Assembly (NCBI GenBank): GCA_964348415.1
Contig: CAYGCR010000002.1
Span: 25,069 to 89,068, forward strand
Reading direction: 5' to 3'
Source of the DNA: an uncultured Ignavibacteria bacterium
GTDB lineage: Bacteria; Zixibacteria; MSB-5A5; SM1-73
DNA length: 64,000 nucleotides
Shown: in pieces, positions 3,342-47,231 of the stretch
Layout of the letters: each line of letters opens with the position of its first letter
Position numbering within the stretch: the stretch's first letter is position 1
Position numbers and translations under genes: made by a program
The notes under the pieces: generated by a model
The model's database searches: none
What the model saw: only the letters and a program-made list of their open reading frames with translations
What the model was told of the DNA's origin: nothing

Positions 3342-3385
3342 TTGAGTAGAAACAGGGCCAAAAGCTCACCTATCAGAAGGAAAAA

Positions 3386-41365: not shown

Positions 41366-43225
41366 ATGAACAGAAGAACGTGGTTTCATTTTTTGAGAAA
41401 GCTCAACGCCGGACTTGAGCAGACATTTTTCGGAAGGGACCGAAACGGCAAGCAAATACAGAGGTATGCGAGCAAGTCAGAGGTCTCCCTCTCCAGAATC
41501 CCCTGGTTTCTGATATCCCGCCTTTCCATATTTGTCCTCTTACTGATAATTGTGGTTCTGTTTTTCCAGATGCCGGATTCTCTGGTCCTTGCCTTCACCA
41601 CCTACTCCTTCATAACCCTGGCTCTTCTTCTGCTCATTGCGTTTGATCTGAAGCAAACTTATCATCTGCTGTTCAGTGCCGTAGTTGTTTTGCAGCTGAT
41701 TCTGGAGATCATAGTCGAAACCGGGTTGGTACATCACACCGGAGGCATGGGCAGTCCCTTTGCCGTCCTTTTTGTTTTGACTATACTATCCGCAAGTCTG
41801 GCTTACGGCTTAGTCGGAAGCGTGTGTATGGCCGGCTTGTCCAGCCTGGCATACGCCTCTGTCCTGTGGGTTGAGGAAGGTTTGGAACTATCTTTTAAAG
41901 GCCTCCTTTACGCTAGTGATGCTTCATTCTATGAAGCATTTCTCTACATCTGCACCTTCTTTTTGGTGGCTTTCATAAGTGGCTATCTGACGCAAAGATT
42001 GAAAGCAAAGGGCCAGGAGCTGTGGACTGCTTCCCTGGAATTGGACAAAATAAAGGCGGATACAGACGAGATACTAAGACACCTGAAAAGCGGCCTCATT
42101 ACGATCGACGCCTGGGGCAGGATTGTTTATTTCAACCGGGCAGCAGAGGAGATATTGGGATATTCCGAAAGCGAGGTAAAAGGGAGAGACTGCCGGGAGG
42201 TATTCCGGCAAAGGATGCCTCAGCTGGCAGAAAAAATAATTCAGGTGATAAAGCTCAACGAGGAACATGCCAGGGGTCTGCTTTATATCGAGGACAAAAA
42301 CGGGCGAAAGATTCCCATAGGCATAAGCACTTCCATTCTGGGGGACACGGAAACGGGCGTGAGAGGTGTGATCGCCATATTCCAGGATATAAGCGAGGCC
42401 ATGAAGCTGGAGGAGAGAATCCGGGTGGCCGACAAGCTGGCTGCAGTTGGCGAACTCTCTGCCGGAATCGCCCACGAGATACGAAATCCTTTGGCCTCTA
42501 TCTCAGGATCGGTGGAAGTTTTGAAGGAGGAGCTTGCCCTGTCCCGGGAGAATCGAAATCTTCTGGACCTGGTAATCAAAGAGACAGACAGGCTGAATCG
42601 GATTGTGACTGATTTTCTGACTTATGCCCGCATCGGCCCCTCGTTGTTAGGCAAAGTGGAGTTGCTGCATCTCCTGGATGACGTCATAGAGATTGCGAGG
42701 AAGCATCCTTGCTATAAGGAAAGTGTCTCCTTTCACAAGATCTTCTCAACGCAGGTGCGATACGTGGTGGGCGAAGAAAATCAGATAAAACAGATATTCT
42801 TGAACCTGCTGGTGAATGCGCTGGAGGCCATGGAGGGCAGGTGGGGTAAGATAGTGATAAGTGATAGAAGCTTGAGTCAACTGGATAAATTCTATTTTCG
42901 GGACGAGGAGCCGGAGGAATCCGAGTGGGTGCCCATTGCGATTGTAGATGAAGGAAAAGGAATGACAGAAGAGCAAAAACAGAAGATTTTCTCCCCGTTT
43001 TATTCTGGCAAAAAAAATGGCACCGGCCTGGGGCTGGCCATAGTACAGAGGCTGGTGAACAACTTAGGCGGAAAGATAGAATTCCGCAGCCAGGAGGGTA
43101 AAGGCTCGGCTTTTGTGGTATATCTGCAGAAGTACACGAAACAGAAGGTTAAGCTCTTTCAGACAGCACCCACCGGGAATCTGGCAAACCTCGACGTTTC
43201 CACTTCGGAATTTCACCTAACCTAA
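41366..43225 (+). CDS. pilS: PilS-like membrane sensor histidine kinase: multi-TM N-terminus, PAS, HisKA, HATPase_c.
   Basis: Six TM helices in the N-terminal ~200 aa, a PAS-like region, H-box AHEIRNPL, and G1/G2 boxes (DEGKGM, GTGLGLAIV). No response-regulator gene follows. Confidence 0.75.
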   Translation: MNRRTWFHFLRKLNAGLEQTFFGRDRNGKQIQRYASKSEVSLSRIPWFLISRLSIFVLLLIIVVLFFQMPDSLVLAFTTYSFITLALLLLIAFDLKQTYHLLFSAVVVLQLILEIIVETGLVHHTGGMGSPFAVLFVLTILSASLAYGLVGSVCMAGLSSLAYASVLWVEEGLELSFKGLLYASDASFYEAFLYICTFFLVAFISGYLTQRLKAKGQELWTASLELDKIKADTDEILRHLKSGLITIDAWGRIVYFNRAAEEILGYSESEVKGRDCREVFRQRMPQLAEKIIQVIKLNEEHARGLLYIEDKNGRKIPIGISTSILGDTETGVRGVIAIFQDISEAMKLEERIRVADKLAAVGELSAGIAHEIRNPLASISGSVEVLKEELALSRENRNLLDLVIKETDRLNRIVTDFLTYARIGPSLLGKVELLHLLDDVIEIARKHPCYKESVSFHKIFSTQVRYVVGEENQIKQIFLNLLVNALEAMEGRWGKIVISDRSLSQLDKFYFRDEEPEESEWVPIAIVDEGKGMTEEQKQKIFSPFYSGKKNGTGLGLAIVQRLVNNLGGKIEFRSQEGKGSAFVVYLQKYTKQKVKLFQTAPTGNLANLDVSTSEFHLT

Positions 43226-43474
43226 AGGCCAATCTATCTGGATTTCCGCGGGCGTGGGCCAAGTTAATTTGCGCCTTTCCCGCGAACTTTTCCCACATTT
43301 CGCTTGCAAGCAGCAGAAATCACGTTACATTAGAGTAAAGAATAAGTAAAACAAAGTGTGCCTTTTCAAACTCCTTTATGGCGATTTCTCGTGAACGAGC
43401 GGAGAAGGTGAAACATGTAATAGTTGCTGCGGGTGTGAGGTCATACCCGGCAAAGGTGGCCGGGACCTGACAGA

Positions 43475-43560
43475 ACAGAAAGAAAAGTTTCGTAGGTCAG
43501 GTGCCCTGAGCACCTGACAAATAAAGGTGACAGGAGCACGGGGTCGCTGGACCACAAGCT
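43475..43560 (+). repeat. Left copy of a ~60-bp direct repeat carrying a degenerate CAGGAGC-N5-GCTCCTG palindrome, upstream of the orphan ORF.
   Basis: Aligned by eye to 44181..44254 at about 80% identity: AAAGTTTCGTAGGTCAGGTGCCCTGAGCACCTGACAAATAAAGGTGACAGGAGCACGGGG. Confidence 0.5.
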
Positions 43561-43587
43561 GACTTTTGTCGTTAGGAGGCTGCAACA

Positions 43588-44001
43588 TTGTCAACCAAAA
43601 AAAAGAAACTCAAAGCAAAGAGCATTGTAAGCCGACTGACAGGCATTTCTACTCCAGTCGGTGGGATTTCCTGGACACCACCAGTTGATGAACGGGACAA
43701 AGCAAAACGGTTGGTGACTTTTCTTGAAGATCGACGCGCTCTTTACCATCCTTATAATATGGAAGTAGCTGACTATGTTGTCGAGTCTATCCTTGAAATA
43801 CGCGAGCGGCTCACATCAGATCTCGAACATGTGAACGAATCTTCTGTCTTAGGAGAGAGTCTTATCGCAATGCGTGCAGCTTGTCGGAAATTCCTGGACA
43901 AGGTACAAAGACCACCGAGAAAAAGATATTGGTTGGGACCCGACTTCATCTACGGCCTTGGTGAACTAAGAGCATTATTCGGCATTCATGTTGCAAGATA
44001 G
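43588..44001 (+). CDS. Hypothetical protein (137 aa) with no recognisable family. It sits in a cassette-like arrangement bracketed by direct repeats.
   Basis: Strong AGGAGG RBS 7 nt upstream of the TTG start. The ORF is clean and no domain was recognised. Confidence 0.5.
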   Translation: MSTKKKKLKAKSIVSRLTGISTPVGGISWTPPVDERDKAKRLVTFLEDRRALYHPYNMEVADYVVESILEIRERLTSDLEHVNESSVLGESLIAMRAACRKFLDKVQRPPRKRYWLGPDFIYGLGELRALFGIHVAR

Positions 44002-44180
44002 GCATGTGCATACGATCTAGAACTTGAGAAAGATTTGGCCTCAATTCTTCCTGCAGAACCTGAGCTAGATAAGAGGAAGGGAAGGAGAACTAAAGCAAAG
44101 TGAATTCTCCCAACAACCCACTCGAAAGGGAAGCGGCAAAAAGGCGCCGCGCCCCTTAGCTTTGCGTTATGCGGACGAAG

Positions 44181-44254
44181 AGTTTCGTCGGTTAGATGCC
44201 CTGCGGTCCTGACAAATGAAAGTGTCAGGAGCACGGGGCTCCTGACCTACTAGG
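44181..44254 (+). repeat. Right copy of the ~60-bp direct repeat, with a perfect CAGGAGCACGGGGCTCCTG palindrome.
   Basis: AGAGTTTCGTCGGTTAGATGCCCTGCGGTCCTGACAAATGAAAGTGTCAGGAGCACGGGGCTCCTGACCTACTAG. A third copy of the palindrome, CCAGGAGCCCGGAGCTCCTGAGCTACTACC, lies at 44541..44570. Confidence 0.55.
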
Positions 44255-44651
44255 TGGCTCTCTTACCACAAGGAGCAAATTCACCATTTATGGTGAGTCT
44301 CGAACCACAACTTTAATGGTGAAAAGGATACCTCCCCCGTTATGGGAGGCAAACATATGAAACATGCACACAAACTCCCCTTGTGGGAGACGAATAATCC
44401 TTTTCCTTCGACCCTGTGTCTCAGGACGAAGTGCAGGACCGAAGGGCAGGGTGAACTCTCTTGAAGCACCGCACAACGGTTGAAAAAAATTCAAAACGAA
44501 CACCAGTAAGGTCAGTAAGGTCAGAAATACCAGAGAAGTGCCAGGAGCCCGGAGCTCCTGAGCTACTACCTAATCTCCCGCCATTGTCCGCTCCCGGACG
44601 TGTTCCTTCCTCTCCCCTGGGGGAGAGAATTAACTTGAGGGGGACATACCA

Positions 44652-45095
44652 GTCATTGCGAGCGCAGCGAAGCAATCTCCCTGGCACATCAACCGACGCT
44701 TTGAGATTGCCTCGTCGTCCCCGACAAAGGCGGCGTACTCCTCGCAATGACACTCACACGCCCGTCATTGCGAGCGTAGCGAAGCAATCTCCCTGGTACA
44801 TCAACCGACGCCTTGAGATTGCCTCGTCGCCCCCGCCAAATGCGGGGGACTTCTCGCAATGACGCTTACATACCCGTCACTGCGAGCGCAGCGAAGCAAT
44901 CTGCTTGGTACATCAACCGACGCCTTGAGATTGCCTCGTCGCCCCCGCCAAAGGCGGGGTACTCCTCGCAATCACACTTACACACCCGTCATTGCGAGCG
45001 ATAGCATAGCAATCTCCCTGGTACGTCAACCGAGGCTTTGAGATTGCTTCGTCGTCCCCGCCAAAGGCCGGGCACTCCTCGCAATGACATCAGAG
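44652..45095. repeat. Four tandem copies of a ~112-bp nested-palindromic element. Units start at 44652, 44764, 44876 and 44984.
   Basis: Unit consensus: GTCATTGCGAGCGCAGCGAAGCAATCTCCCTGGTACATCAACCGACGCCTTGAGATTGCCTCGTCGCCCCCGCCAAAGGCGGGGTACTCCTCGCAATGACACTTACACACCC. Terminal inverted repeats are GTCATTGCGAG / CTCGCAATGAC, inner ones GCAATCTC / GAGATTGC. Copies are about 85-90% identical, and the unit is contiguous with no spacers. Confidence 0.8.
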
Positions 45096-45246
45096 GTTTC
45101 TTGCACAGACGCAATGTTCTCTGTCCTTGAGCAAAAGGGCCAGGTTGAAGACCCCGCCACAGGGGCAACAGGAGGGAACTGTAGTTGCTCGATTTATCGA
45201 GCTCAATAAACGCCCAATGAATTGGGCAACTACGTTTCTTGAGCGC

Positions 45247-45280
45247 TCGAAAAAGAAGGGTGGAGCTAAAGCTCCACCCC
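45247..45280 (-). terminator. Rho-independent terminator of the ATP synthase operon.
   Basis: Minus-strand RNA: GGGUGGAGC-UUUA-GCUCCACCC followed by UUCUUUUUCG. It lies 35 nt downstream of the atpC stop. Confidence 0.7.
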
Positions 45281-45313
45281 TACAATTTCTAGCTTACAGG
45301 CTGAAAGCCTATT

Positions 45314-45730
45314 TTAGTCCTGCTCACTAAGTCGGATTGCTTTATAAAGACGGCACCTGTTTTCTGCGCGAAGCCTTGCTGCCAGAGCGCGTGCTACGTC
45401 AATCCCCTCTTCTTTTGATTTCAGCCTTCGTTTGGCCCGCTGCAGAGCTTTGGCCGCTCTCTCGTAATCTATGTCATCTACAGATTCGACTGAATGCGCC
45501 AGAATGGTAACATGATTCTTGAAGACCTCCATGAAGCCACCGCCGATGGCGAAGATCAGCTCTTGGTTTTTCTCATCTCTCACCGCTAGCTTTCCGGGAA
45601 CCAGGACGGTGATCAAAGGGGCGTGATCGGTCAGAACCCCCAGGTATCCTTCCGAGCCAGGCGCGATGATGGAGACCACCTCTTGTTCGAAGAATACTTT
45701 TTCCGGTGTCACGATACTTAAGAGATACAT
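45314..45730 (-). CDS. atpC: F1Fo ATP synthase epsilon subunit.
   Basis: 138-aa beta-sandwich plus helical hairpin. The N-terminus LSIVTPEKVFFEQEVVSIIAPGSEGYLGVL is typical. Confidence 0.85.
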   Translation of the reverse strand: MYLLSIVTPEKVFFEQEVVSIIAPGSEGYLGVLTDHAPLITVLVPGKLAVRDEKNQELIFAIGGGFMEVFKNHVTILAHSVESVDDIDYERAAKALQRAKRRLKSKEEGIDVARALAARLRAENRCRLYKAIRLSEQD

Positions 45731-45794
45731 GTTAAAGACATTATATTGAATATCCGGGGCGAATCAACTCTTACCCCGGTTCAGTGTCCGTTTG

Positions 45795-47231
<1,437 letters not shown>

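Follow-up and report, generated by a model that had tools for sequence, protein, structure and literature searches.

The interval between pilS and atpC in the DNA analysed here holds copies of a REP/RAYT repeat family together with a decaying gene of the DUF6650 (ThsG-like) family, and this re-annotation is our main result. We are confident that the repeats are GTAG-tagged REPs of a family associated with a REP-associated tyrosine transposase (RAYT) in Zixibacteria-type genomes, the two longer copies, R1 and R2, being doublets of the BIME/REPIN kind and the third, R3, a single unit. Together with the gene between them, the two doublets form a block that is a real insertion/deletion unit bounded by REPs.

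REP units in the window

The window (the whole stretch of 64,000 nucleotides that was analysed) contains two direct repeats, R1 at 43482-43564 and R2 at 44177-44259, which are 77% identical over 83 nt. Direct repeats of about 80% identity had been described here in the original prediction, and they are real, with coordinates and identity now corrected to these values. A partial third copy, R3, lies at 44536-44568. R1 and R2 consist of two 33-nt units apiece (repeat family D2), with one hairpin per unit. The unit is recognised by a 27-nt GTAG-tagged hairpin of the pattern GTAGGTCAGG(T/A)GC-N5-GC(A/T)CCTGAC, in which an unpaired GTAG stands 5' of a 9-bp stem with a 5-nt loop. Within each of the two doublets the units are in inverted orientation, so that the outer ends read GTAG...CTAC. 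The units are as follows.

43492..43518, plus strand: U1a, perfect REP unit, GTAGGTCAGGTGC-CCTGA-GCACCTGAC; outer left end of the block
43529..43555, minus strand: U1b, decayed; inner unit of R1, the doublet on the left (about 43487-43564)
44187..44213, plus strand: U2a, decayed; inner unit of R2, the doublet on the right (about 44177-44259)
44224..44250, minus strand: U2b, perfect REP hairpin, GTAGGTCAGGAGC-CCCGT-GCTCCTGAC; outer right end of the block
44540..44566, minus strand: R3, single REP unit, GTAGCTCAGGAGC-TCCGG-GCTCCTGGC; 2 mismatches to the REP pattern

Scored against the REP pattern, the two outer units have no mismatches (U1a to GTAGGTCAGGWGC-N5-GCWCCTGAC, and U2b likewise), U2a has 4 and U1b has 7 by hand count, the last being aligned as a 33-nt unit in family D2. 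The GTAG tag is kept in U1a, U2b and R3 and reads GTGG or GTCG in the decayed units. A perfect 19-nt palindrome, CAGGAGCACGGGGCTCCTG, lies at 44226-44244, and the third palindrome copy that had been noticed downstream is present as CAGGAGCCCGGAGCTCCTG at 44542-44560. The earlier description of one palindrome per repeat, degenerate on the left and perfect on the right, holds for the perfect right-hand copy; each repeat has two units, and on the left U1a is perfect. The R3 unit also closes another dispersed repeat, which occupies 44258-44535.

By searching the 64-kb window with the fuller REP pattern and allowing up to 3 mismatches we obtained 4 matches, 2 of which are the U1a hairpin counted on both strands, against 0.00 expected from shuffled sequences. 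In all, the family is represented in the window by five units that lie inside 1.1 kb, and no further copy was found elsewhere in the 64 kb when up to 5 mismatches were allowed. Folded as DNA, the repeats reach −11 to −16 kcal/mol (z from −2.0 to −3.4). The U1a hairpin is seen in the fold of R1 (−15.6 kcal/mol, z = −2.5), R3 folds as a hairpin (−11.1 kcal/mol), and in R2 as single-stranded DNA U2a and U2b pair with each other into one long hairpin (−16 kcal/mol, z = −3.4). At gathering thresholds Rfam gave no matches in the whole window, and a permissive Rfam scan of 43200-45320 stayed at chance level, with a best score of 22 bits against a gathering score of 46.

Dispersal of the family in related genomes

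We scanned a collection of species-representative genomes with the core of the first unit, CAGGTGCCCTGNGCACCTGA (19 specified bases). The exact core was present in 52 stretches, compared with about 4 expected by chance as estimated from the size of the collection. About 48 of the 52 are GTAG-tagged and lie in MAGs labelled Candidatus Zixiibacteriota or "uncultured Ignavibacteria". The 4 stretches without the tag come from Comamonadaceae, Pyrinomonadaceae, a deltaproteobacterium and Selenomonas; they look like chance matches, and their number agrees with the expectation. The window itself is affiliated with Zixibacteria by its PilS homologues. The largest numbers per genome were found in CAZOJT (9 stretches on 8 contigs) and CAYURP (8 stretches on 6 contigs), and CAZOJT keeps the gene order of the window, pilB-pilT-pilC-pilS ... 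atpC-atpD (L146). Classical REPs typically occur in hundreds of copies; here the copy number is low by comparison, the relatives having no more than about 10 exact cores each and complete Zixibacteria chromosomes (n = 2) 0-1. These low numbers count against the REP reading, as do the confinement of the family to 1.1 kb of the window and the lack of a tblastn match to a RAYT there.

The family consensus reads AGTTC-GTAGGTCAGGTGCCCTGNGCACCTGAC, then a spacer, for example ACCAAGATAA, and then GTCAGGAGCACGGGGCTCCTGACCTAC-AAGC. Of the 56 family copies taken from other genomes, nearly all carry the GTAG tag. True doublets number 25, their spacers being about 6-16 nt long, and a further 34 cases are singlets or arranged in some other way; a 26th doublet called by the script was left out of the 25, as it consists of two tandem same-strand REPs in the locus L056. 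One stem pair is systematically different between the two units of a doublet, T·A in one and A·T in the other, a feature in which the family is unlike known REPs.

Almost all copies are extragenic: 4 of the 52 cores lie within an open frame of at least 150 codons, compared with 75% of random positions. In 27 second-unit copies, 86% of the stem cells form standard pairs, against 26-44% when partners are slid, and three stem pairs have changed on both sides (for example CAGAAGC/GCTTCTG and CAGTAGC/GCTACTC). This covariation lends modest support to the predicted hairpin; the first-unit copies are uninformative in this respect because they were selected by exact match.

None of the 52 core-bearing stretches contains a DUF6650 gene. 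The suggestion that the repeats are specific to an insertion at this locus is therefore not borne out. They belong instead to a REP family dispersed in related genomes and without a specific association, an outcome that the original prediction had itself named as refuting it.

A transposase flanked by the same REPs

In one relative the family is associated with a RAYT. An ORF of 166 aa at 2809-3309 of L056, from the genome CAZPEV, matches NCBIfam NF047646, the REP-associated tyrosine transposase (E = 6.9e-42, 142.8 bits against a cutoff of 80), and also Pfam Y1_Tnp; we take it to have the HUH and catalytic-Tyr motifs of such enzymes. Exact REPs bracket this gene, at 2677 and 2731 on the plus strand to its left and at 3360 and 3515 on the minus strand to its right, and CAZPEV has a further REP on another contig (L045). 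A second RAYT was found in the REP-rich genome CAYURP (L052, 93 bits), where it stands beside a different palindrome. A tblastn search found no RAYT in the 64-kb window.

The layout of L056 matches the REPtron arrangement described for GTAG REPs (PMC3733652, PMC3337134), in which a single RAYT gene stands between inverted copies of one REP sequence. By the definitions given in PMC3733652, PMC3337134 and PMC8266576, the REP/BIME/REPIN–RAYT systems (REPtrons) of E. coli, Pseudomonas and Stenotrophomonas also share with the present family the 27-nt hairpin with its unpaired 5' GTAG, inverted doublets able to form a long hairpin, and an extragenic position, often after convergent genes. TnpA_REP uses the GTAG tag together with the hairpin for recognition and as a guide (PMC8266576).

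The hosts differ, being of Zixibacteria type (FCB group) here and Proteobacteria for the known REP systems, and our literature search found no paper that treats Zixibacteria and REPs together. The present family also departs from known REPs in that a protein-coding gene lies here between two doublets and in that the entire block forms an indel.

The DUF6650 gene between the repeats

The gene between the doublets comprises the following features.

43574..43579, plus strand: ribosome-binding site AGGAGG, 8 nt upstream of the DUF6650 start codon (TTG at 43588)
43588..44103, plus strand: DUF6650 (ThsG-like) gene, 171 codons, with an in-frame TAG at 43999-44001

The ribosome-binding site is as it had been read before. 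The TTG-start ORF as first read (43588-44001, 137 aa) had been taken for a well-formed gene of no recognisable family, and on both counts the assignment changes. It is a member of Pfam DUF6650 (PF20355; E = 9e-17, 61.8 bits against a cutoff of 27) with 970 homologues at E <= 1e-3, the closest of which are 83-90% identical and 166-171 aa long. It is also truncated: the TAG occupies the position of a Leu that is kept in all 12 aligned homologues (motif ARLACAYDL), and past it the frame stays open for 33 more codons and ends with the TGA at 44101-44103. In the alignment with the same 12 homologues the residues downstream of the TAG are conserved, including the invariant Y142, L150, L154 and P155. 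In Logan, the independently assembled contig L001 agrees with the region at 100% identity and has the TAG as well. We therefore read the gene, from its sequence, as one of 171 codons with a single nonsense change, which is probably a pseudogene or yields a truncated product; TTG to TAG would be the simplest change behind the nonsense codon. The Logan contig ends exactly at 44252, the end of R2, which hints at a repeat-induced assembly break.

In the closest homologues the DUF6650 gene is followed by a partner gene of about 270-300 aa. The partner in L149/L150 and L002 is a protein with an Rx4H motif, which we take to be HEPN-like, and other partners are a REase-ARP protein (L009) and an NYN nuclease (L152); none of the HEPN-like, REase-ARP and NYN partners of the close homologues gave a TIR match. 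Beside the gene in the window there is neither a TIR nor a nuclease partner, its neighbours being pilS, the REPs, other repeats and atpC, and the DUF6650 copy in L008 likewise has no partner gene. The flanks of the further homologues (L149-156, L002, L152-154) contain no REPs; these repeats thus do not accompany the DUF6650 family in general. A metagenome scan for DUF6650 relatives returned distant homologues only, at 67% identity or less, which were of no help in analysing the junctions.

DUF6650 proteins have been named ThsG, the effector of type VI Thoeris, in which TIR and DUF6650 proteins act together with 2'cADPR signalling (bioRxiv 10.64898/2025.12.03.692087), and DefensePredictor places DUF6650 among the domains newly implicated in defence. 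The PADLOC (2023) models matched neither DUF6650 nor most of its partners. The gene described here shares with type VI Thoeris the DUF6650-family protein; unlike that system it has no adjacent TIR gene and carries a premature stop, and the partners of its closest homologues are nuclease-like proteins rather than TIR proteins.

The indel block in the pilS–atpC interval

The closest relative that we found, L143 (ENA ERZ936117), has a PilS that is 91% identical to that of the window. It aligns to the window at 86% over 43000-43489 and at about 90% over 44258-45231, and between these alignments it has 304 unrelated nt (L143:9124-9427) where the window has 768 nt. The boundaries of the indel defined in this way lie at the REP ends.

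43490..44257, no strand: indel block of 768 bp, REP doublet – DUF6650 – REP doublet, absent from L143

The window and L143 have in common R3, at the orthologous place, as well as what lies between R2 and R3 and also the 112-bp tandem array. No copy of the repeat was found at the L143 junctions, and the 304-nt segment has no other copy among the loci compared. It had been proposed that flanking repeats of this kind would be left as target duplications or att scars; since the L143 allele has no copy and the repeat is a dispersed family, we conclude that the repeats are of neither kind. The proposal of a mobile cassette fares better in one respect, in that L143, L008 and L010 reveal an insertion/deletion unit bounded by REPs, with the repeats being generic REPs and not att sites. 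The comparison of syntenic loci that had been envisaged did produce a relative without the block, with the 304 unrelated nt in its place, and in none of the compared genomes does pilR directly follow pilS.

In the more distant loci L145-147, pilS and atpC are separated by 2.8-5.8 kb with other genes, which code for a beta-helix/NosD protein and for proteins 623 and 624 aa long; the pilS–atpC interval is thus hypervariable. Away from this interval the block recurs at 84% nucleotide identity in L008 and L010, next to different genes. In L010 the homology begins at 43491, with the GTAG, and the product of the upstream gene has a T9SS sorting domain. In L008 the homology reaches approximately the CTAC, and downstream are a 75-aa ORF, another REP and the NAD synthase gene. 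Decay of the inner units is seen in L008 and L010 as well, U1b being equally decayed there.

Alternative explanations for the repeats and the block

The units are dyad-symmetric, and it had been suggested that they serve as operator sites for a dimeric regulator; at the RNA level they might be terminators or mRNA-stabilising hairpins acting for the DUF6650 gene. U2b read on the minus strand is indeed terminator-like in a simple scan, and REPs elsewhere in bacteria are reported to affect termination and mRNA stability (PMC3733652). However, U2b is the only such case, as the other units have no T-tract behind them, and close DUF6650 homologues do without the repeats. The operator reading is disfavoured: in many genomes the copies lie between genes that are unrelated to one another, following dozens of them, and DUF6650 is present in 0 of the 52 stretches. 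A role confined to this gene would moreover leave the conserved unpaired GTAG tag and the link to a RAYT unexplained, and we consider it very improbable. Transcribed hairpins are in themselves compatible with REP biology, and an RNA-level side effect alongside the REP identity is possible. The presence at a variable locus of an ORF with a 60-80-nt imperfect palindromic repeat behind it, seen twice over as ORF–repeat–ORF–repeat in L008, recalls the attC sites of an integron-like cassette (CALIN-type), and R2 can fold into a single long, imperfect hairpin; a related explanation would be attL/attR scars left by a site-specific integrase. Yet by inspection there are no attC core sites, that is, no R''/R' pair in attC order (RYYYAAC 5', GTTRRRY 3'), and the only string resembling GTTRRRY is U2a's GTTAGAT, a decayed GGTCAGG that stands at the 5' and not the 3' end. 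Nor is there an integrase gene among the neighbours, pilS and atpC adjoining. The repeats are dispersed singly, after housekeeping genes on many contigs, they flank a Y1 transposase rather than IntI, and the L143 allele has no att-like copy. We give integron or integrase sites hardly any credence, and hold to the identification of the repeats as RAYT-associated REPs.

Given that the repeats are REPs, the block itself, U1a(+)...DUF6650...U2b(−), could be a composite cargo element that a RAYT would excise and insert in trans as single-stranded DNA, with the outer REPs as its ends. Every junction lies at the outer REP ends (43491 in L010, approximately the CTAC in L008, and the 43490-44257 indel relative to L143), the neighbours differ from place to place (pilS/atpC in the window, the protein with a T9SS tail in L010, the 75-aa ORF and NAD synthase in L008), and close homologues without REPs (L149-151) match the inner part only, 43552-44168, inside the doublets. 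It also fits this suggestion that the outer REPs are perfect whereas the inner ones, with their 4 and 7 mismatches, are decayed alike in all copies, that the plus ... minus orientation is that of the REPs around the L056 RAYT, and that a second, non-coding dispersed element in L023 is bounded in the same way by REP(+)...REP(−). Against this, the independent junctions number two or three, and homology that stops at REPs is partly expected, REPs being conserved anyway. The L143 allele is a replacement and not an empty site, and REP pairs with cargo were not found in the REPIN/RAYT literature searched. Recombination between dispersed REPs, or exchange via conserved flanks, fits the data equally. 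We therefore regard mobilisation of the block by a RAYT in trans as conceivable but unlikely, and are similarly doubtful that the 768-bp block was moved whole into the pilS/atpC interval and at least 2 other genomic contexts.

Among the known systems that come close are members of the IS200/IS605 group that carry passenger genes. These elements move as single-stranded DNA, by 'peel and paste', through the action of a Y1 TnpA at subterminal hairpins. The block shares with them hairpin ends with a guide tetranucleotide, the link to the Y1/HUH family, and the expectation of no target duplication. Unlike them it has no internal transposase, its end hairpins are inverted rather than on the same strand, and its mobility is putative.

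Proposed mechanism

By likeness to the characterised REP/RAYT systems, we infer that a RAYT mechanism operates on this family. The REPs would fold as hairpins in single-stranded DNA and, as such, would be the substrates that a REP-associated tyrosine (HUH/Y1) transposase recognises, cuts and spreads; such a transposase is encoded once in related genomes, with the same REPs flanking its gene. REP-directed events, and not ordinary recombination, may then have moved the block. The gene within it, of the DUF6650/ThsG-like defence family, has lost its usual partner gene and come to carry the nonsense codon, and the interval between the convergent pilS and atpC genes serves as a variable dump for repeats and accessory DNA.

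Implications

Most of the documented REP/RAYT systems come from Proteobacteria, and the usual view of such systems is that they are domesticated and non-coding. Such systems are well known, and what is new here is this family and the arrangement of a REP-bounded cargo. A well-defined GTAG REP family with a RAYT is now placed in Zixibacteria-type genomes, a little-studied phylum. The association of DUF6650 with nuclease-like partners and not TIR may point to other DUF6650-based systems. As the REP-bounded block is a precise indel in several contexts, the rarely examined idea of cargo-carrying REP pairs becomes directly testable, and if the cargo reading is true, REP/RAYT systems would be able to shuttle protein-coding genes.

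Variable content between pilS and atpC

The order pilB-pilT-pilC-pilS is kept in Zixibacteria relatives, where it is convergent with atpC-atpD. The content from pilS to atpC is different in each genome examined (the window, its closest relative L143 and the further relatives L145-L148), and pilR does not follow pilS in any of them.

Window features compared with L143 and L145-L148
36955-43225, pilB-pilT-pilC-pilS
45314-47213, atpC-atpD

In L143, the 304 nt that stand in for the DUF6650 block (L143:9124-9427) carry a CATAGGTAACA-like motif four times; no other copy of this segment was found among the loci compared in this analysis. Further downstream, window 44644-45113 holds four tandem copies of 112-113 bp each, with 63-91% identity to the reference copy, and every copy contains internal inverted repeats (CGTCATTGCGAG / CTCGCAATGACG and CGAAGCAATCTC / GAGATTGCCTCG). 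This array is also present in L143, at about 90% identity.

Other repeats associated with REPs

Window 44258-44570 holds a second dispersed repeat, structured and non-coding, for which Rfam returned no match. Among its conserved blocks are AACTTTAATGGTGAAAAGGATACCTCCCCCGTTATGGGAGG and CATGCACAnAAACTCCCCTTGTGGGAGACGAATAATCC; the repeat terminates in ...CACCAGTAAGGTCAG, after which comes a REP(-). The L023 copy is itself flanked by REPs, in the arrangement REP(+)...REP(-). A 35-codon ORF lying within the repeat (44358-44465) is probably spurious.

Further copies of the second dispersed repeat
L143:9428-9760
L023:3178-3440
L013:2470-2730, reverse complement
L040:7750-8000
L021, L054, L055, L057 and L038, copies without coordinates

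The REP-rich genome CAYURP (L052) encodes a second RAYT (L052:5215-5697; NF047646 match, 93 bits), adjoined by a palindrome, CTGTCAGGTCAC... (L052:5717-5756), that is different from that of the REP family and recurs beside REP doublets in three other stretches (L029, L046 and L051). Palindrome and RAYT probably represent another REP family together with the transposase that serves it.

A complete Zixibacteria-type REP doublet was also observed on a 3.1-kb contig (L062, JAEOTY010000355.1) of a MAG labelled Candidatus Hodarchaeota archaeon, probably a bacterial contig mis-binned into an archaeal MAG.

Neighbours of DUF6650 homologues

Directly 3' of the DUF6650 stop codon we noted a short motif, (T/C)CTCC(T/C)AAC, conserved across otherwise diverged DUF6650 loci (window 44104-44120; L009:2346-2362; also L155, L156 and L010). 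At the L002 locus, a DNA methyltransferase gene is located upstream. Regularly 3' of close DUF6650 homologues is a gene for a nuclease-like partner, either an Rx4H-motif protein, which we read as putatively HEPN-like, a REase-ARP protein or an NYN protein.

Partners of close DUF6650 homologues
L149/L150, 299-301 aa
L002:6609-7508
L009:2444-3292
L152:4549-5355

Type VI Thoeris pairs DUF6650 with a TIR protein, whereas these close homologues have the nuclease-like partner in its place, which suggests that DUF6650 also takes part in two-gene modules of a kind other than type VI Thoeris.
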